Shown piece by piece: positions 5,764 to 35,158 of a DNA stretch of 64,000 nt (position 1 is the first letter of the stretch; each line of letters starts with the position of its first letter). The notes below the pieces were generated by a model. That model searched no databases, was not told where the DNA came from, and saw only the letters and a list, made by a program, of their open reading frames with translations. The stretch is taken from assembly GCA_001785355.1 (NCBI GenBank), contig MFTQ01000021.1, positions 4,033 through 68,032 on the forward strand, written 5' to 3'. The translations under genes were made by a program, and so were the position numbers. The DNA comes from Candidatus Nomurabacteria bacterium RIFCSPHIGHO2_01_FULL_41_71. Its GTDB lineage: Bacteria > Patescibacteriota > Minisyncoccia > Phycocordibacterales > UBA9973.

Positions 5764-6438
5764 ATGTTACGCAAGGATCCATTTATCACCGGCGAATATT
5801 ATCATCTTTATAATCGTGGTATAGATAAAAGAGTAATATTCAAATCAAAAAAAGACTACGAGCGATTTATCATGCTTTTATATATTGCGAATACACAAAC
5901 AGAATCTTTTCGTTTGGATAATTTAATAAATCAACAGCATAAAACATTTAACGAAATTCTGGTATTAGATAGGGGTGAATTAATCATTTCTATTGGTGCA
6001 TGGTCTCTCATGACAAATCATTTTCATTTAATAGTAAGACAAGAAATCGATGGAGGAATTACTAAATTTATGAGAAAATTGGGGACAGGATACTCTATGT
6101 TTTTTAATATTAAATACCAAAGAACAGGTGCCTTGTTTGGCGGATTATTCAAATCAAAATTAATTGGAGTTGATGATAATTATATGCGACAATTATTCGG
6201 ATATATTCATATTAATCCCTTGGAAATAAAATTTCCTGATTGGCAAAAGCAAATCAAAAAACCTTTTAGTGAGATGAAAAAATTTCTTAGATTATATAAG
6301 TATTCCAGTTATCCCGATTATATTGAAGAGGATAGAGTAGAAAAAAATATATTAAATGCCAAAAATTTTCCTAAGTATTTTAATAATGCAAAATCCTTTA
6401 AAGATTTTATGGATGAATATTTCATCGAAAATAATTAA
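5764..6438 (+). CDS. IS200-like/REP-associated tyrosine transposase (RAYT) paralog 1
   Basis: GEYYHLYNRG N-terminus, HxH motif NHFHLIV, Y1-transposase fold hallmarks; flanked by cognate REP hairpins. Confidence 0.75.
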   Translation: MLRKDPFITGEYYHLYNRGIDKRVIFKSKKDYERFIMLLYIANTQTESFRLDNLINQQHKTFNEILVLDRGELIISIGAWSLMTNHFHLIVRQEIDGGITKFMRKLGTGYSMFFNIKYQRTGALFGGLFKSKLIGVDDNYMRQLFGYIHINPLEIKFPDWQKQIKKPFSEMKKFLRLYKYSSYPDYIEEDRVEKNILNAKNFPKYFNNAKSFKDFMDEYFIENN

Positions 6439-6443
6439 GCAAA

Positions 6444-6472
6444 AATTAAGCAAGGACGGTCCTTGCTTAATT
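6444..6472. repeat. REP palindrome (same family as 5709-5737) downstream of RAYT-1
   Basis: aattaagcaaggacggtccttgcttaatt. Confidence 0.85.
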
Positions 6473-6540
6473 TAAAGAGGGGCTTTAAAATTGCGATTTT
6501 TATGGTATCATTTAGTTAAGTCCGCCATGCGGGCTGTTTT

Positions 6541-10701: not shown

Positions 10702-12318
10702 TTACACTATGCAAAAGCGGGATTGGTTTAGTGGTAGAATGCGACCTTCCCAAGGTTGAGACAGGAGTTCGATTCTCCTATCCCGCACCATAAACGAACT
10801 AGACGGTTTTTTAGAAGCTGAAATGCGGGACGCGCGAAGCGCGTCCCAAGGATTCCCGCCGAATTTCCCAAACGAATTCAGAATTTTTGGCGCGCTGGCG
10901 CGCACTAATTTTTCGCCAAGAAGCAGGTTCGAGCCAAAGATTTCTTTGGCACAGACCTTTTTCGCAAAAAGGTCTGTATCCTGTGCGATTCCATTCAGGT
11001 TTTGTGCGACTTTTAGCCAATCGAGTAGCGGTTCGAGCCAATCATTGTGCTTGTGTGAAAGAGAGGTCATTTCTTCTTCGAGCGACTTCTTTTGCAAAAT
11101 CAATTTTGCTTTTTCTACACGATAGGTTTCCTTTTCAATATCTTGGTCAAGGTAAGTATTCAGAAGTCGCTCTAACTTTTGTGAAATGACAGATATTTTG
11201 GTTTCTTTCTCTTTCACACTAGCACCCACGGATTGGGCGGAGTTTTTGAAATCAGCTCGTGCCATTTTTTCCAGTTCCTCCGCCCAATCTCGTGGCAAAG
11301 AAACTTTTTGAATTAGGGATGATAACTGGCGATTAAGTTCTTCTTCCCGAATACAAGGTTGAGAACATTTTACATTTTTGTTTTTCTTTGTGCAGTGATA
11401 ATAAGTGTAATTATGCACATTTCCGTTCTTCTGCTTCTTAACCTTGTATTCGCCAGTTATCATCATTCCACATTCGGTGCAAGATAATAACCCGCAAAAT
11501 GGTTGAGGTTCATTTTTAGATTTTCGTTCGGGTTGTCCGCGGAGTTTCATCACTTTTTGCACCGAATCAAAAAGTTTCTTTGAAATGATTGGCTCGTGCT
11601 TGCCTTCGTGCAATTCTCCCGCATAGTTGAAAAGTCCAGTATAAAAAGGGTTTGAAAGAATAAAAGTCGCACGAGTTTTGTGGATTCTCTTTCCACCTCT
11701 CGAAACGATTCCGTTTTTCGCCAAAAAGTTTGAAATATCTTCCAGTCGTTGATTTCCTTTCGCGTATCTCTCAAAAGCCAAGCGGATAATTTTCGCTTTC
11801 TTCTTTTCCACTACAATCGTTTTTGTTCTACTGTCGTTGATATATCCCAAAGGAGCTTGGCTTGGAAATATTCCCATTCTCACTTTTTGGCGAAGACCTC
11901 GTTTCGTATTTTCTGAAAGAGAATCCACATAGTATTTGCTTTGGACAAATGCCATAGAGAGTGAAAATTTCCCTTGCGGAGTATTCTCAAACCAGTGCGA
12001 AGGGAATTTCATGCTCGCAAGTTTTCCGATGTCGAGTAAGTAGATAATTTGTCCGCCATCCACCGAATTACGGGCTAGACGATCGGGATGCCAACTGACG
12101 ATACCATTTGCCTCACCTCGTTCAATGCGCTTCAGCATTTGCCCGAAAATAGGTCTGCCGGGAATTTTCGCAGATTGTTTTTCGATAAATTCCTCAATGA
12201 CCTCTAAGTTTTGCTCTCGGGCAAATGCCCGCAATTCGGTGAGTTGAGCGTCAATACTCAAAACTTGTTTGTCTTCGACATCGGTGCTCTTGCGAGCATA
12301 CAAAAAGAATTTTTGCAT
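10702..12318 (-). CDS. Large serine recombinase (resolvase/invertase catalytic domain + recombinase domain + Zn-ribbon). 3' end reads antisense through IR-A and tRNA-Gly
   Basis: YARKSTDVEDKQVLSIDAQ catalytic-Ser motif at N-terminus, CTECG...CTKKNKNVKC zinc ribbon, coiled-coil. True stop uncertain because the ORF runs through a GC-rich repeat. Confidence 0.85.
   Translation of the reverse strand: MQKFFLYARKSTDVEDKQVLSIDAQLTELRAFAREQNLEVIEEFIEKQSAKIPGRPIFGQMLKRIERGEANGIVSWHPDRLARNSVDGGQIIYLLDIGKLASMKFPSHWFENTPQGKFSLSMAFVQSKYYVDSLSENTKRGLRQKVRMGIFPSQAPLGYINDSRTKTIVVEKKKAKIIRLAFERYAKGNQRLEDISNFLAKNGIVSRGGKRIHKTRATFILSNPFYTGLFNYAGELHEGKHEPIISKKLFDSVQKVMKLRGQPERKSKNEPQPFCGLLSCTECGMMITGEYKVKKQKNGNVHNYTYYHCTKKNKNVKCSQPCIREEELNRQLSSLIQKVSLPRDWAEELEKMARADFKNSAQSVGASVKEKETKISVISQKLERLLNTYLDQDIEKETYRVEKAKLILQKKSLEEEMTSLSHKHNDWLEPLLDWLKVAQNLNGIAQDTDLFAKKVCAKEIFGSNLLLGEKLVRASAPKILNSFGKFGGNPWDALRASRISASKKPSSSFMVRDRRIELLSQPWEGRILPLNQSRFCIV
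10717..10790 (+). tRNA. tRNA-Gly (anticodon CCC), CCA encoded
   Basis: Cloverleaf folded by hand: acceptor GCGGGAT/ATCCCGC, anticodon loop TTCCCAA, T-arm AGGAG-TTCGATT-CTCCT. Confidence 0.85.
10785..10878. repeat. IR-A: 94-bp perfect inverted repeat, begins in the tRNA-Gly 3' end. Partner at 12545-12638
   Basis: Reverse complement of 10785-10878 equals 12545-12638 base for base. Similarity continues imperfectly ~55 bp further (10879-10935 vs 12481-12544). Confidence 0.9.
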
Positions 12319-12336
12319 ATATTTTTCTTAAAGCGA

Positions 12337-12393
12337 AAATGGCTATTTTAGGTTGAAATCCTAACGTTAGTTAGAAAACTAAAATAGCCATTT
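12337..12393. promoter_or_regulatory. 57-bp perfectly symmetric site (15-bp arms + central 10-bp palindrome ctaacgttag with CG centre) 19 bp upstream of the recombinase start. Candidate recombination site or operator
   Basis: aaatggctattttag-gttgaaatc-ctaacgttag-ttagaaaa-ctaaaatagccattt read directly. Confidence 0.4.
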
Positions 12394-12544
12394 CCGCCAA
12401 CTAACTGATAATGGATTTCAACACAGTTAGTATAGCAAAAATTCTTTTTGTATCCAAAGCAAATACTTTGAATTTGTATCGCACGGGATTTCGAACCTGC
12501 TTCTTGGCGAAAAAACAGTGCGCATCGCCGAAGGCGGTGCTCCA

Positions 12545-12638
12545 AATTCGTTTGGGAAATTCGGCGGGAATCCTTGGGACGCGCTTCGCGCGTCCCGCAT
12601 TTCAGCTTCTAAAAAACCGTCTAGTTCGTTTATGGTGC
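12545..12638. repeat. IR-A': inverted partner of IR-A, contains inverted copy of tRNA-Gly 3' end (ggtgc)
   Basis: See IR-A. Confidence 0.9.
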
Positions 12639-12958
12639 GTTTATTCTACCAAATCAGAACCTATTTTCAAAATCTGTAATCAATGGAGTTCCCCGCGCGC
12701 TACGCGCCTCTGTGCAAAGCACAGAGCTTTCCAAAGTGGAAAGTGCGGGGAACGCAACATCTCCGAACGGCTCAAATGCCAGTAAGTGAGCCGTTCAGTA
12801 AAATGGACGAAGTTTTGCAAAAACTATTTTCTGGGGAAAGGATTTTGCAAAACTTCGGCTAGTGTTTTTGAAATTCGGCGGGCATGCAAATTCCCCGCGC
12901 GGAGGAGGGGTCTGGGGAGGAATCCGCGCGGGCTTTGGATTTTGTTGGGCGGATGGGC
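12635..12958. repeat. IR-B: 324-bp perfect inverted repeat, GC-rich. Partner at 14801-15124
   Basis: Reverse complement equals 14801-15124. Generates identical 57-aa phantom N-termini on ORFs 12786 (+) and 14973 (-). Confidence 0.9.
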
Positions 12959-13010
12959 CACCTTTACTTTTTTAATCAAAAAATCTAGTATATTTTATGG
13001 AGGTGTTGAA

Positions 13011-13397
13011 TTGAAGACTTTCCTGAAGAAAGTCCTGCGATTCAGCATCGCAGGAGGTACCGGAGTTCTCAGCGGCTACGTGGCCCTGTATTCCCTCACC
13101 GAGTTTGTTGGGTGGTGGTATATATGGTCAGCTTTTGTGGCCTTCGTTCTTAACACTGGAGTGACTTTTTACCTCCAGAGGTTCTGGACGTTCAAAAACG
13201 AGAGCCTCAAACCTTTCAGCCCGAAGCAGTTTATCATGTACTCGATGATGACAGCTAGCTTCGTTGGCTCGAATATCATACTGCTTTACCTCTTAGTGGA
13301 GTACGTACATCTCCACTACATGGTAGCGCAGGTGTGTCTGACGGCTCTTTTTTCGGTGTTTAGCTTCGTGCTGACACCTAAGATCTTCACTCGCTAG
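13011..13397 (+). CDS. GtrA-family small membrane protein (polyprenol-sugar flippase-like). TTG start after ggaggtg RBS
   Basis: ~128 aa, 4 TM, FSIAGGTGVLSGY...LNTGVTFYLQRFWTF typical of GtrA family. Upstream part of the 203-aa ORF lies in IR-B and is not credited. Confidence 0.6.
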   Translation: MKTFLKKVLRFSIAGGTGVLSGYVALYSLTEFVGWWYIWSAFVAFVLNTGVTFYLQRFWTFKNESLKPFSPKQFIMYSMMTASFVGSNIILLYLLVEYVHLHYMVAQVCLTALFSVFSFVLTPKIFTR

Positions 13398-13477
13398 AAT
13401 CGGCGTGCTCCGCAAGGACACGCCGATCGCTACTTCTAATAGAAAAAATACTCCAAAAATGATAAAATGAACTAGCT

Positions 13478-14131
13478 ATGGACTCAGAAACTCAAAGACA
13501 ACAAATTGGTAATTCCCTGAAAATAACCACAGAAATTTTTGGAAGTTGTAATGCGGATTACCGAATTCTTGGTTCTGTTTTGTTGGTTGCATATACCAAT
13601 AGAGTTTTTAGACGCATAAATGATGTTGATATTCTCCTAGATATAAAAACTAAAGATTGTGTATTCGAAAAACTAAAAAACAATGGTTTCCAATTTGAGC
13701 CAAAAAAAGTGGCTGGATTTTCTTGGATTGAAGCAAAAAAAGATCAACACTTAGGACTAACCTTTTTTCTTGTTGGTGAATTCAGAAAAGAGTATTTTAC
13801 TTGGCGTTTTATGAAATTTTTTGAACTAAGAATACGAGCTGAATATTTACATCCAACTGAATATAATTTTGAAAATGTAAAATTTATTGGCATTCCCATT
13901 TCGTCTGCTATTGCTGGGATTAGACAATCATTTCTTAATCCGAAAAGAAAAATGGATAAGCAAATTTTAGAAAATGAAGTCAATAAATCTAAAGTAAAAA
14001 TTTACAATAATATTTCTGTTTATATTTTTGGTGTAAAGCTTCCATATTTGTATGATTCATTTTCTTTTCTTTACAATATTTATGGCGGGATACGAGTTAT
14101 GTTTGGTAAAAAGTATGAGGCTTGGGATTAA
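13478..14131 (+). CDS. Pol-beta-superfamily nucleotidyltransferase-like protein
   Basis: ILGSVLLVAY...x10...DVDILLD matches the GS-x(9-13)-DxD NTase motif. No further family assignment possible by eye. Confidence 0.4.
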   Translation: MDSETQRQQIGNSLKITTEIFGSCNADYRILGSVLLVAYTNRVFRRINDVDILLDIKTKDCVFEKLKNNGFQFEPKKVAGFSWIEAKKDQHLGLTFFLVGEFRKEYFTWRFMKFFELRIRAEYLHPTEYNFENVKFIGIPISSAIAGIRQSFLNPKRKMDKQILENEVNKSKVKIYNNISVYIFGVKLPYLYDSFSFLYNIYGGIRVMFGKKYEAWD

Positions 14132-14138
14132 ATAATTT

Positions 14139-14747
14139 ATGATTACATGGATAATAATTTGGTTATTTTTTTGGACTAGCGCATTAGGTTTTACTAACTA
14201 TCTTTTTAAAAAACATGGGATTACTTATTACGAAAAATCTTGGCAACACACTATTTTTTTTATAATCCTCACACTAATCCTTTTTGTTGTTTATCAAAAT
14301 CAGTTTTTCGTATATTTTAATAATTTTTCCCTATATCATTTATTGATTATCCTGCTCTTATTTATACTGTGGCTTTCTGTCCCAACTCTTTATAAAAATG
14401 ATTATTATGCCAAAAAAGAAAGGTTTGGTTATCAGTTGCCAAAATTTTTTGAAATATTTTTCCAAGACATTTGCTTTTTAGGTGGCTTACTGACCTTTGG
14501 GATTTCTCCGACAATGTTTGGTTTGGTGTTTTTCGTCGTTCATATTCCAGCAGTATTTCTCCTTCCTAAAAAATTTGCCCTCCTGCCTATATTTGGTTCA
14601 CTTTTTGGAGGGCTAATTTTGGCCCATTTACAATCTCAAGGGATAATAGGATTTTTAGTCACATTATTTATACATTTATCATTTTGGGCTACTCTACACT
14701 ATGCTCTACAGAAAAATATTTTAGGCATTACTCCATTAAAAAGATAA
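14139..14747 (+). CDS. Polytopic membrane protein, unknown function (cargo of the IR-B cassette)
   Basis: 6-7 hydrophobic helices; very AT-rich relative to the flanking repeats. Confidence 0.4.
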   Translation: MITWIIIWLFFWTSALGFTNYLFKKHGITYYEKSWQHTIFFIILTLILFVVYQNQFFVYFNNFSLYHLLIILLLFILWLSVPTLYKNDYYAKKERFGYQLPKFFEIFFQDICFLGGLLTFGISPTMFGLVFFVVHIPAVFLLPKKFALLPIFGSLFGGLILAHLQSQGIIGFLVTLFIHLSFWATLHYALQKNILGITPLKR

Positions 14748-14800
14748 TATTTGTATCTCGGCTTTGCCGAGATTTCAATATTTGAATTTGATTTCTTAAT

Positions 14801-15124
14801 GCCCATCCGCCCAACAAAATCCAAAGCCCGCGCGGATTCCTCCCCAGACCCCTCCTCCGCGCGGGGAATTTGCATGCCCGCCGAATTTCAAAAACACTAG
14901 CCGAAGTTTTGCAAAATCCTTTCCCCAGAAAATAGTTTTTGCAAAACTTCGTCCATTTTACTGAACGGCTCACTTACTGGCATTTGAGCCGTTCGGAGAT
15001 GTTGCGTTCCCCGCACTTTCCACTTTGGAAAGCTCTGTGCTTTGCACAGAGGCGCGTAGCGCGCGGGGAACTCCATTGATTACAGATTTTGAAAATAGGT
15101 TCTGATTTGGTAGAATAAACGCAC
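14801..15124. repeat. IR-B': inverted partner of IR-B
   Basis: See IR-B. Confidence 0.9.
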
Positions 15125-15206
15125 TTTTTTTTGAATAAAGTGTGTCACACTTTCATGTTTATATTTAGTTTTGACTTTCAAAAAGCGTGGGAGTATAATA
15201 TGGAGT

Positions 15207-15445: not shown

Positions 15446-15520
15446 GTCCTCGTAGTTAAACGGATATAACGACTCCGTCCTAAGGAGTAATTGTAGGTTC
15501 AATTCCTGCCGAGGACACCA
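15446..15520 (+). tRNA. tRNA-Arg (anticodon CCT), CCA encoded
   Basis: Acceptor GTCCTCG/CGAGGAC, anticodon loop GTCCTAA, T-arm GTAGG-TTCAATT-CCTGC. Confidence 0.8.
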
Positions 15521-15597
15521 CAACCAAACTTTTGCTTTTGTCAGAAGAATTTTCGCGCGCTTCACGAAGCGAAGCGTAAGGTGGGATAGAGTTAAAT

Positions 15598-15807
15598 TCA
15601 ATCCGGCGATTTTTCAAAAACAGGTTCGAGCCAAATAATATTGCCTTTTTCTAATTCGGTCATTTTCTCCTCCAACGACTTCTTGCGGGAGAGAAGCCCA
15701 GCCTTCTCTGCAAGGTACTCATCTTGCTCTATATCCTCGTCAATAGACCGGACTTGTTTGTCTTCAATATCGGTTGATTTGCGAGCGTATAAGAGGTATT
15801 TAAGCAT
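15598..15807 (-). pseudogene. Internally deleted remnant of a large serine recombinase (N-terminal 23 aa fused to ~45 aa of the C-terminal coiled-coil)
   Basis: MLKYLLYARKSTDIEDKQVRSID matches the rec-1 N-terminus. EKAGLLSRKKSLEEKMTELEKGNIIWLEP matches rec-1 EKAKLILQKKSLEEEMTSLSHKHNDWLEP. Upstream DNA (15580-15630) resembles the inner part of IR-A (caggttcgagccaaa). Confidence 0.75.
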
Positions 15808-15884
15808 CGGTGTATTATACCACCTTGCTTTAGATGTGTTAATCTAATATAATCTCATATATCTAATATAATAGATTATAAGAC

Positions 15885-16934
15885 ATGAATTACAATAAAC
15901 GAATTAAGAATATACCACAAAATCTATGGGTATTCATCAATCAAATTGATGAATTAAAAGGCCGATGGATTGGTGGAGCCGAAATAAATCCACAAGCACT
16001 TGGCCGATTAAAACGTTCCGTTTTGGTTACGTCGACTGGCGCCTCCACTCGTATTGAAGGAGCCAAACTTTCCGACGAAGATATTGAAAAAATGATGCGT
16101 GGACTTTCTATGCAAAAATTTGCCGACCGCGACAAGCAAGAAGTGCAAGGATATTATGAACTTCTTGAAAATGTATTTAACTCTTACAACAAGATACCAT
16201 TTTCAGAAAGTAGCATTCAACATCTTCATAAGGAAATTTTAAAATATGTTGAGAAAGATAAATTTCATCGCGGAGAATACAAAAAAACTGAAAACAGAGT
16301 TGAAATGGTAAATGAAGTGGGTCAATCTATAGGTATTTTATTTGATACCACACCTGCCTGGCTCACACCGAAAGAAATGCAAGAATTATTCGAATGGACT
16401 AAAAAATCTCTCTCTTTAAAAGAAATTCATCCATTAATAATTATTGGAAATTTTATTGTGGAATTTCTTAATATCCACCCATTTCAAGATGGCAATGGTA
16501 GACTTTCACGCGTTCTTACAAATTTATTAATGCTCCAAGCTGGTTACGCATACATGCCGTATGTCTCGCATGAGAAATTGATTGAAGATAATAAGGCGGA
16601 ATATTATGTAGCTCTTAGAAAAAGTCAGAAAACTTTAAAAACCGATAATCCGAATGTTGTGCCTTGGCTTGAATTCTTTTTCAATGTTCTGCTTACACAA
16701 GCAAAACAAGCAATTGAGTTGCTGTCAAAAGAAAATATTGATAAACTTCTTTCCCCCAAACAACTTTTAGTGTGGCTCCATCTTAGTAATGTTGGGGAAG
16801 CCACGCCTAGAGACATATCTTTAAAAACAAAAGTTGCTCGCCCAACCGTGTCTCAAGCACTCGATACTCTTTTGCGTCTCAAGAAAGTTGAACGTATTGG
16901 ACAAGGACGAACGACGAGGTATAGGAAAATATAA
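15885..16934 (+). CDS. Fic/DOC family protein (AMPylation-type) with C-terminal winged helix
   Basis: Canonical Fic motif HPFQDGNGRLSRVLTNLLMLQAGY. Confidence 0.85.
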   Translation: MNYNKRIKNIPQNLWVFINQIDELKGRWIGGAEINPQALGRLKRSVLVTSTGASTRIEGAKLSDEDIEKMMRGLSMQKFADRDKQEVQGYYELLENVFNSYNKIPFSESSIQHLHKEILKYVEKDKFHRGEYKKTENRVEMVNEVGQSIGILFDTTPAWLTPKEMQELFEWTKKSLSLKEIHPLIIIGNFIVEFLNIHPFQDGNGRLSRVLTNLLMLQAGYAYMPYVSHEKLIEDNKAEYYVALRKSQKTLKTDNPNVVPWLEFFFNVLLTQAKQAIELLSKENIDKLLSPKQLLVWLHLSNVGEATPRDISLKTKVARPTVSQALDTLLRLKKVERIGQGRTTRYRKI

Positions 16935-34858: not shown

Positions 34859-34960
34859 GGCTACACAAGACCGCGACAATTCCTTTCGGAACTGCCCTGC
34901 ACCCTTTCGGGCACAGACCACGCGAGTAGGCGGCTTGTGTAGCCGTTTTTACCCGCGTGG
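34859..34960 (+). ncRNA. Candidate structured RNA / cis-regulatory leader: GC-rich nested and alternative hairpins in an AT-rich intergenic region (strand not established)
   Basis: 11-bp stem ggctacacaag...cttgtgtagcc enclosing two UUCG-type hairpins. Competing ccacgcg...cgcgtgg stem followed by T-rich run; a second cgcgtggttttt copy at 34814. Confidence 0.25.
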
Positions 34961-35158
34961 ATTTATTTTCACCATGCCATTTTACCGGTTTAGGTGTTGT
35001 AATTTCATAGTAGCTCTTTTTTGACCTAAAAACAACACAACTTGCATACTAAATTTGGTATGCTACAATTAAAGTAATTGAATATGGAATGATAGATCGG
35101 CCACATGGTTTAATTGCAAGTTTTGCAGTTAAGTCGGCCGTTTTTTTATTTAATATAC

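Follow-up and report, generated by a model that had tools for sequence, protein, structure and literature searches.

We analysed a stretch of 64,000 nt from Candidatus Nomurabacteria bacterium RIFCSPHIGHO2_01_FULL_41_71 (contig MFTQ01000021.1, positions 4,033 to 68,032; hereafter the window, to whose numbering all coordinates refer), in which a tRNA-Gly(ccc) gene is followed by a gene for a large serine recombinase (LSR) and three further genes, framed by two abutting pairs of long inverted repeats (IRs). An earlier note on this DNA had proposed a recombinase-linked mobile module anchored at this tRNA, a proposal which our findings support, and the tRNA gene, the recombinase, both repeat pairs and the three cargo genes lie at the positions claimed for them. 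The features are listed below; A and A' denote the arms around the recombinase, B and B' those around the cargo, attL and attR the two ends of the inserted element, and attP and attB the sites of the predicted circle and of the target.

10717..10790, + strand: tRNA-Gly(ccc), the putative integration target (ARAGORN, Rfam), whose last bases, including the encoded CCA, appear to come from the element
10784..10788, + strand: attL core CGCAC, a direct repeat of 15120-15124, inverted at 12635-12639 (junctions across 18 loci)
10784..10932, + strand: IR-A, the right-end arm, perfect to 10878 (repeat search, self-BLAST)
10702..12318, - strand: open reading frame (ORF) of the LSR, 538 aa (PF00239, PF07508 and PF13408)
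12333..12456, - strand: recombinase promoter-like site (12456 to 12429) and hairpin in the 5' untranslated region (5' UTR), a block invariant across five aligned loci
12491..12639, + strand: IR-A', the left-end arm, perfect from 12545, an inverted A cassette with the other allele of hairpin H2
12600..12680, - strand: internal junction of B outer end, GTGCG and A' outer end, equal to the predicted attP, inverted
12635..12958, + strand: IR-B, the proximal cargo arm (repeat search), its outer ~45 nt forming a predicted att half-site and promoter
13011..13397, + strand: cargo 1, GtrA-family small membrane protein, 128 aa (PF04138, E=3e-18)
13478..14131, + strand: cargo 2, nucleotidyltransferase-fold protein, 217 aa, LnuA-, ANT(2'')- and FKRP-like
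14139..14747, + strand: cargo 3, polytopic membrane protein, 202 aa, ~6 hydrophobic segments, no family assigned
14748..14800, no strand given: conserved ~50-bp block inside the distal arm, element framework and not cargo
14801..15124, + strand: IR-B', the distal cargo arm, with an outward promoter-like site (15089 to 15116) and the attR core CGCAC (15120-15124)
15125..15153, + strand: flank F, eight consecutive T plus the hairpin AAAGTGTG-T-CACACTTT, presumably what originally lay downstream of tRNA-Gly
15446..16934, no strand given: second, decayed element with tRNA-Arg(cct), recombinase remnant and Fic/DOC gene (repeat, ORF and domain searches)

A repeat finder and self-BLAST of the window, a self-comparison of the kind that the earlier note had suggested, recovered both IR pairs with 100% complementarity. 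IR-A (10784-10878 / 12545-12639) is a perfect inverted repeat as claimed, of 95 nt and not 94, and continues as an imperfect extension out to 10932 / 12491, giving a total of ~149 nt at 88%. IR-B (12635-12958 / 14801-15124) measures 324 nt. The direct fusion of IR-A' to IR-B likewise stands, with an overlap of 5 nt (GTGCG, 12635-12639) in place of the 4 nt given before. The same pentamer, read as CGCAC, recurs at 10784-10788 and 15120-15124, and the tRNA portion inside IR-A amounts to only 7 nt, CGCACCA. In 200-nt windows the arms reach 46-51% GC, against 40.2% for the whole window, and a conserved 25-nt pattern at the outer end of IR-B (12647-12671) has zero chance matches expected in the window. 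The order along the locus is thus tRNA, then A arm-recombinase-A' arm, then B arm-cargo-B' arm, and finally the presumed original downstream sequence of the tRNA.

The recombinase begins with LYARKSTD, which contains the serine motif Y-x-R-x-S, and matches PF00239 over residues 5-149 (E=6e-21), PF07508 (E=2e-15) and PF13408 (Zn_ribbon_recom; E=1e-8). Residues 168-373 match the C-terminal domain of the A118/LI integrase, and among solved structures the integrases of A118/LI and SPbeta come closest. In NCBIfam, CcrB, XisF and CcrA score highest, each below its cut-off; the IS607 model recognizes the catalytic domain only, with 24.6 bits against a cut-off of 110. The length of 538 aa and this LSR domain set set the protein apart from small invertases of ~190 aa with a C-terminal helix-turn-helix (HTH). 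A scan of viral contigs with the recombinase found no relatives; hence, nothing points to a phage as its carrier. No recombination directionality factor was found: the recombinase module holds the recombinase ORF only, and the cargo varies between copies. Between the promoter-like site and the start codon lies a conserved ~65-nt imperfect hairpin (12333-12397, with arms 12333-12354 and 12376-12397), which covaries in loci L001-L004 and may act as a regulatory 5' UTR.

The recombinase belongs to a widespread family. It has 7,917 homologues, and for most of the top 120 the identity to it is 69-93%; the source names given among these 120 are Parcubacteria/Patescibacteria, and many of the 120 lie on contigs of ~1.8-2 kb. 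For comparison, 84 loci were collected by looking up recombinases and scanning one genome per species, and 120 more by searching metagenomes with a conserved stretch of 25 nt from IR-B. In all 72 loci with an assignable tRNA, the recombinase gene abuts or overlaps, by its 3' end, the 3' end of a tRNA gene, and more than 20 tRNA species serve as targets across the family. In ~60 loci the recombinase is flanked by an inverted repeat of 51-208 nt. Both complete IR pairs abut, with an overlap of 3-10 nt, in 18 loci besides the window, where the repeats around the LSR measure 77-208 nt. In all 18, the cargo pair is found 5' of the recombinase, and in 17 the recombinase lies within the tRNA-side pair, the remaining one (L101) having it adjoin another B arm instead. 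A further locus, L085, has both pairs with a 265-nt spacer between them. Recombinases close to that of the window sit at other tRNA genes: at tRNA-Gly(tcc) in L005 (94% identical), at tRNA-Leu(tag) in L003 (90%) and at tRNA-Lys(ctt) in L010 (97% over residues 1-432). The occurrence of 90-97% identical recombinases at different tRNAs suggests recent mobility and a generic read-out of tRNA ends. We found no description of this element family or of its nested-repeat architecture in a literature search; it is apparently a large, hitherto undescribed group in the ultra-small bacteria of the candidate phyla radiation (CPR).

The junctions of the window and 17 further loci, when oriented by the core, take the same three forms: tRNA.core.A at attL, B.core.F at attR and, on the opposite strand, B.core.A in the middle. 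Flank F is unrelated between loci and typically opens with a T-run or a terminator hairpin, which is the usual sequence after a tRNA gene. In L026 a 5-kb composite lies exactly between tRNA-Val(tac) and tRNA-Arg(tct), two genes that are 24-64 nt apart in L008 and L020. The direct CGCAC repeats, together with the presumed native downstream flank at the far end, argue that the whole composite is one insertion; a single insertion at the last bases of the tRNA, spanning 10784-15124 (~4.34 kb), is well supported by these comparisons. The end sites are hybrids that share a short identical core with the target, and the 17 further loci follow the same logic. As read from the junctions, the crossover is confined to the shared 3-7 nt just before CCA. 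The short attP core always matches the tRNA in use, and the central A'/B fusion is identical, in inverted orientation, to the junction (attP) predicted for the circle. An attempt to derive a symmetric attP by aligning the GTTC motifs of the B and A ends was rejected, the implied centre 7-9 nt before CCA being in conflict with the crossover set by the junctions: the B half-site has a T-loop-like GTTC at the expected distance, and the A half-site is dissimilar in register. We likewise rejected excision between the two A-arm junctions, for which perfect IRs would need a palindromic central dinucleotide; none is conserved.

CCA is encoded in three of the seven tRNA genes of the window, namely tRNA-Gly(ccc), tRNA-Arg(cct) and tRNA-Phe(gaa), and is lacking in the other four. 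The first two are occupied by an element, which suggests that the element supplied their CCA. As a separate observation, tRNA-Phe(gaa), with CCAAATTTTAGTTTAAAT, may bear an old element scar. The empty tRNA-Gly site that the earlier note had advised seeking was not encountered: among the 210 fetched loci we found neither an empty tRNA-Gly(ccc) site nor a syntenic relative. In L009 the LepA-tRNA-Gly locus is likewise occupied by an element, and in L113 synteny is limited to the downstream side.

The recombinase ORF (12318 to 10702, - strand) passes through IR-A and then runs antisense through the tRNA, so that its final ~30 codons are antisense tRNA; the element contributes no stop to the frame. 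The same is true of 69 of 70 loci, where the frame has no stop before the element end and terminates in the antisense tRNA or beyond; the final 120 nt are open in the other two frames in just 20 and 25 of 68 distinct sequences. As the frame lacks its own stop and crosses the core, the C-terminus would be set by whatever sequence lies beyond the core. Across the inverted copy of the junction, the frame would reach a stop after 15 codons from the B arm, ...MVR-LFYQIRTYFQNL*, and this predicted B-arm-encoded tail, an alternative C-terminus, reads ...MVRLFYQIRTYFQNL.

From the tRNA inward, the A arm holds a hairpin H0, a hairpin H1 (10827-10847, GAA loop) and a terminator-like hairpin H2 (10890-10903), which in the window consists of GCGCGCTGGCGCGC then ACTAATTTTT (10890-10913), with the T-run extending up to 10913. 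H1 shows compensatory changes at five of its nine pairs and canonical pairing in 304 of 306 cells, and its loops are mostly GNA. In 53 of 72 loci, a second GC-rich hairpin with a T-run lies at a distance of 105-128 nt from where the tRNA ends; the count rises to 62 of 72 when any distance of 80 nt or more is allowed. This hairpin occurs in several covarying alleles, some with a UUCG loop on the tRNA-sense strand. Counts of G-U versus A-C pairs were uninformative as to the functional strand, and loop identity (GNA, UUCG) and the T-run were used instead. From these features the A arm looks like a structured trailer of ~125 nt with a terminator, read from the tRNA at the right end, where the arm is antisense to the final ~50 codons of the recombinase. 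Rfam (Rfam 15) gave no match for either arm, be it of type A or B, at the gathering threshold or at E<=1, where only the tRNAs and miRNA hits of chance level were returned.

The A arms of one element are 93-100% identical to each other in 31 elements, whose recombinase genes differ by 10-40%; the exception is the extended A arm of the window, with 89% identity within the element. The most similar A arm in any other element is 57-96% identical. This greater identity within than between elements indicates concerted evolution and not recent duplication, and refutes the suggestion that the perfect repeats are recently formed, since arms have been kept identical across a family diverged by 10-40%. 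The perfect part of IR-A ends where the terminator-hairpin alleles of the two arms differ (10879-10932 versus 12491-12544): the right-end allele is GCGCGCTGGCGCGC, as in L018 and L034, and the left-end allele is GCACCGCCTTCGGCGATGC, close to those of L003 and L005. The differing alleles suggest that the recombinase module is a recombinant of two lineages in which a hairpin was kept in both arms. In addition, a 22-nt box, GTTT..GAAATTCGGCGGG.AT, is common to the A and B arms with 86% identity and opposite polarity relative to the core (10852-10873, 12550-12571, 12864-12885 and 14874-14895); it may be a protein-binding site.

In the B arm, the outer 39-45 nt are kept across the family. They contain an outward match to an extended -10 promoter, TTGAAA-16-TGgTAGAAT, at 12670 to 12643 (-), from where it points into the recombinase module, and at 15089 to 15116 (+). 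The profile of the -10 hexamer over 96 distinct B ends is T A n A A T, with position 3 free, A4 in 96 of 96, A5 in 91 and T6 in 95; T1 and A2 were preset by the search pattern, leaving the four other positions informative. The core begins 6 nt downstream of the hexamer. The promoter spacer holds a T-loop-like GGTTCG, from whose GTTC the terminal A is 27 nt away in the B end and 23 nt in the neighbouring tRNA. This offset is +4 in 26 of 31 loci and +5 in three. The LI integrase system shows a comparable shift: the distance between the centre and the zinc-ribbon-domain motif is 5 bp larger in attP than in attB (PMC3783163). By analogy, the B outer end is plausibly a P-type half-site and the tRNA a B-type half-site.

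Over its inner ~280 nt, the B arm is made up of consecutive GC-rich hairpins that covary: in module Ha 11 of 28 pairs are compensatory and in Hb-Hc 10 of 25, with ~98% of the cells canonical. The loop of the innermost hairpin (12886-12925, 14834-14873) holds a conserved run of G-tracts, GGAGGAGGGGTCTGGGGAGGAA, with one-strand G-quadruplex potential. Next to the distal arm, the ~50-bp block at 14748-14800 recurs in the same place and orientation in L066, L026, L011, L032, L019 and L030. We also observed that in L119 (106-240 / 6362-6496) and L124 the IR of the cargo unit extends ~70 nt past the core on both sides, entering another type of outside arm (CACCACAAGAGTACTTCC...), which may be a second type of partner module.

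The cargo of the window comprises three genes. The GtrA gene probably starts at TTG 13011, after GGAGG, and with this start no cargo gene extends into IR-B. Profile search bore out the GtrA assignment, and the proposed polytopic membrane protein is also as described. Neither the 217-aa nor the 202-aa protein has a match in Pfam or NCBIfam. The nucleotidyltransferase call for the former gains support from a match of its family profile to LnuA (4wh5/4fo1; E=1.4e-4) and from an AlphaFold model (predicted local distance difference test, pLDDT, 85) similar to LnuA, ANT(2'') and the ribitol-phosphate transferase FKRP. A 94%-identical nucleotidyltransferase occurs in another composite, at tRNA-Ser(gga), with a family 2 glycosyltransferase (GT2) and a C39-like peptidase; its position beside the GT2 makes a role in cell-envelope decoration plausible. 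We regard the cargo as a putative set for decorating cell-envelope glycans or teichoic acids. The earlier view of a cell-surface-modification module thus remains plausible in its envelope-glycan part, and its comparison with phage serotype-conversion (gtr) cassettes fails: there is no GtrB-type GT2 (no GT2 domain was found in the cargo proteins with Pfam and NCBIfam), no recognizable GtrC and no phage context, and GtrA is one of many cargo types. The three genes had been called AT-rich, which holds for the last two (27-30% GC) and not for the GtrA gene (~47%); this mosaic over 13000-14750 suggests a cargo assembled from two sources.

Elsewhere the cargo includes a type II restriction-modification system (L027), a type IIG enzyme (L053), an ArsR-thioredoxin-ArsP set (L038), NYN and Schlafen/AlbA_2 proteins, S51 and trypsin-like peptidases, a pseudopilin, and an insertion sequence (IS) remnant with an aminotransferase and a split tRNA synthetase. 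Related recombinase modules with unrelated cargo bear out the earlier suggestion that the segments are exchangeable. Separately, in L087-L090 (e.g. L087 6834-8181) a nucleotidyltransferase-fold gene and a 173-aa gene lie directly after tRNA-Ser(tga), beside an HNH gene and without recombinase or repeats, and may be fossil cargo.

Several loci depart from the basic arrangement. In L092, a derivative without recombinase, the B arms are reduced to 45 nt and the A arms to an A/A' mini-palindrome of 39 nt. L101 has a second composite stacked on the outer end of another B arm, and in L123 and L162 the 3' end of the recombinase likewise faces a B arm. We considered L101 as a circular form and rejected this, the chromosomal sequence on its left marking a tandem stack; L155, a contig of exactly one cargo unit, was also rejected as a circle, since a repeat-bounded unit yields just this in an assembly graph. 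At six loci a second tRNA, convergent with the first, adjoins the left end; this arrangement is present in the complete chromosome record CP060229 (L045) as well. Of the five such loci in which a repeat is detectable, four have more diverged arms (81-88% identical) or a short repeat of 53 nt, and the fifth, L045, has arms of 97%; L015 has no detectable repeat. Rearrangement between elements explains these loci best. Next to the composite in the window itself lies the decayed element at tRNA-Arg(cct). Its recombinase remnant (15598-15807, - strand) is an internally deleted 69 aa, and its cargo is a single gene of Fic/DOC and winged-helix type (15885-16934), which is 78% identical to a gene just inside a B arm in L110.

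Taken together, we consider it probable that 10784-15124 is one copy of a modular LSR-mobilized element that inserts at tRNA 3' ends and whose arms are duplicated functional cassettes. Its nature as an integrative element is well supported, and the roles of the arms are what we infer from their make-up. The excised form would be a circle in which attP consists of the B outer end, the core and the A outer end, and the LSR would recombine it with attB, the acceptor/T-arm end of the tRNA with its downstream flank. The element would thereby hand the tRNA its CCA together with a new trailer and terminator, the A arm. The LSR probably reads the generic T-loop, and the attP core matches the particular tRNA, a division that would account for 90-97% identical recombinases at differing tRNAs. 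The IRs would not be flip sites but duplicated cassettes that make each module symmetric. The A arms would serve as outward-facing, one-way terminator or structured-RNA cassettes, so that transcripts running on from the tRNA at one end, or coming from the B arm or cargo at the other, would not enter the recombinase gene; the A' copy, if driven by the B-arm promoter, would be perfectly antisense to the 3' end of the recombinase mRNA. With their outward promoters and hairpin array, the B arms would insulate the cargo and re-drive the flanking genes, and the distal B end, being like a tRNA 3' end, would be a regenerated landing site on which further elements can stack. Arm identity would be kept through gene conversion, and cargo freely exchanged between the arms.

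Some findings sit uneasily with this integrative-element reading. Mobility is deduced from comparative anatomy, and the promoter and terminator are assigned from consensus matches and covariation; the conserved 'promoter' could instead be a recombinase-binding site, and the asymmetry of G-U versus A-C pairs gave no functional strand. The predicted attP (B.c.A) is not quasi-palindromic, unlike canonical LSR attP sites, and the GTTC-like motif of the A half-site is only ~12 nt from the crossover. No directionality factor is encoded. Two identical inverted attP copies in the circle predict both orientations, of which one is seen. Finally, the reading gives no reason for the recombinase frame that stays open over the att site.

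One alternative, which we hold to be unlikely, sees two mobile elements side by side: an IS-like A-recombinase-A' unit that inserts between convergent tRNA-like ends, and an independent cargo cassette flanked by B arms, whose termini, resembling tRNA 3' ends, serve as its target. It would account for the recombinase-less cargo cassette beside a tRNA in L092, for recombinase units lying between real convergent tRNAs (L002, L013, L016, L036, L045) or between two B ends (L101), for the many ~1.8-2 kb contigs with the recombinase unit alone and for the single junction form throughout, E-end.core.A. However, nearly all left ends with a visible flank abut a B-type end with the fixed overlap of 3-10 nt, and the far cargo end has the direct repeat of the tRNA core followed by a T-run or hairpin, so that the composite acts as one insertion. 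A perfect IR across the crossover would again call for the palindromic central dinucleotide that is not conserved, and the greater divergence of the arms between two tRNAs (81-88%) fits a secondary rearrangement. Programmed inversion, which the earlier note had raised in suggesting that the segments may be invertible, is improbable. Here the LSR, or RecA acting on the long repeats, would flip the recombinase segment, the cargo segment or both and thus switch surface genes. The perfect long IRs around both segments, the membership of DNA invertases among the serine recombinases, the outward promoters in the B arms and a cargo with a cell-surface function all speak for it. Nevertheless, no inversion was seen across loci: in 19 complete composites, namely the window, L085 and every abutting-pair locus but L101 (17 of 18; in L101 a B arm replaces the tRNA), the recombinase keeps one orientation relative to the tRNA and the B arm, ~8 incomplete metagenome contigs with recombinase and B arm agree, and the ~50-bp distal block stays on the same side in all seven elements having it, despite differing cargo. 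Moreover, with the promoters inside the repeats and firing outward, a flip of the cargo would change nothing; the cargo is often restriction-modification, ArsR/ArsP and similar, and the enzyme is an integrase-type LSR and not of the Hin/Gin type.

More improbable still is an integration from a folded single strand, in which the A/A' and B/B' hairpins would stack after DNA uptake and rebuild a nicked duplex attP for the LSR. The nested IR pairs do share the core, so that the stacked stems give exactly B.c.A; arm complementarity is kept while the sequences drift, and GNA triloops, which are associated with stable DNA mini-hairpins, prevail in H1. Natural transformation is, furthermore, expected to be the main way by which DNA enters the ultra-small Patescibacteria. 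If true, integration of a folded strand at any core-matching tRNA 3' end would be the serine counterpart of CTXphi and integron attC recombination. On the other hand, serine recombinases need duplex sites and make double-strand breaks, none being known to act on folded single strands; UUCG loops, T-runs and the sigma-70-like promoter explain the arms at the level of RNA and transcription, and arm identity down to 92% is tolerated. As for a collapsed or chimeric contig, or amplification chimeras that made the inverted duplications, the 100% identity of both pairs in the window and the frequent breaks of relatives' contigs within the arms could be taken as signs of it. Yet the same architecture recurs in at least 18 other loci from many samples, in assemblies with differing contig-name styles (k141_, NODE_, scaffold_). 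The two arms of a pair are frequently less than 100% identical and differ by indels as well (94.8% in L011, 95.4% in L018, 92.5% in L032), and arm pairs of 92-99% identity with indels cannot come from one reused sequence. An overlap of 3-10 nt is also far under any assembly k-mer, and the arms show internal covariation. On the strength of the diverged arms, the differing assemblies and the short overlap we exclude an assembly artefact, to which we give a negligible probability.

Among known systems, the integrative-element reading places the composite closest to elements of large serine integrases (A118/LI, SPbeta, phiC31, Bxb1; SCCmec with CcrAB; Tn4451 with TnpX), with which it shares the enzyme architecture, a short identical core at both ends and a tRNA-like motif whose distance from the core is greater by 4-5 nt in the site of the element than in that of the target. 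It differs from them in targeting the 3' end of many different tRNA genes, in its size of ~3.5-8.5 kb without phage, conjugation or directionality-factor genes, in having both modules within long IRs that evolve in concert, in retaining an intact inverted attP copy inside the integrated element, and in a recombinase ORF that lacks its own stop and crosses attL. A large survey of LSRs (PMC10083194) does not mention tRNA targets. The tycheposons of Prochlorococcus are likewise small tRNA-adjacent elements with variable adaptive or defence cargo, tandem stacking and decayed remnants (here L101 and the tRNA-Arg remnant). However, 474 of 501 tycheposons carry tRNA-associated tyrosine recombinases, each integrase being specific for one tRNA, and their ends are direct partial-tRNA repeats; they often have replication modules (bioRxiv 10.1101/2020.12.28.424599). 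Nested inverted repeats such as those found here are not described for them. Islands of tyrosine integrases in tRNA and tmRNA genes (Islander-type; PMC4383910) also insert at the tRNA 3' end and restore it, but here the enzyme is a serine recombinase, the core is 3-7 nt and not a direct tRNA repeat of 15-50 nt, and the far end carries its tRNA-like sequence in inverted and not in direct orientation.

The Hin, Gin and Pin switches resemble our composite in that a serine recombinase gene adjoins IR-bracketed DNA. Those invertases have ~190 aa, 26-bp sites and an enhancer, and both orientations coexist, whereas here the protein is of the integrase type with 538 aa, the arms measure 95-380 nt and the orientation is constant. 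With phage gtr (GtrA-GtrB-GtrC) cassettes the window shares GtrA as mobile tRNA-side cargo along with an enzyme and a membrane protein, but its middle gene has a LicD/FKRP/LnuA-like nucleotidyltransferase fold and its carrier is not a phage; Patescibacteria are reported to be without an outer membrane. The integration-dependent truncation of the mycobacteriophages BPs and Brujita offers a parallel for an att core within an ORF whose C-terminus differs between the integrated and excised states. There the ORF is that of the repressor and the integrase is a tyrosine recombinase, whereas here the ORF is that of the serine recombinase itself. Against IS607-type elements, the composite has long terminal repeats and its recombinase is not a small one with an N-terminal HTH. 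Overall, it works like an LSR integrative element, with a life-style that resembles that of the tRNA-targeting, tycheposon-like cargo islands. Apart from the element, the window holds a LOOT RNA (Rfam RF03000) at 34875-34996 (- strand; 66 bits, gathering threshold 46), unrelated to it.

The use of many tRNAs by close integrases, the self-insulation and the att-crossing ORF were not found described in our literature search. Specificity may be split between a generic T-loop read by the protein and an attP core of 3-7 nt, a division that would lend itself to re-targetable integrases. In addition, the element seems to insulate itself through its terminator cassettes, outward promoters and regenerated tRNA-like end. 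Patescibacteria have tiny genomes, and their mobile elements are poorly known; few classical vectors are known in them. The family appears to move restriction-modification, metal-resistance and envelope-modification genes between lineages. In Patescibacteria it would be an important channel for gene flow and would give rise to tRNA-linked rearrangements.

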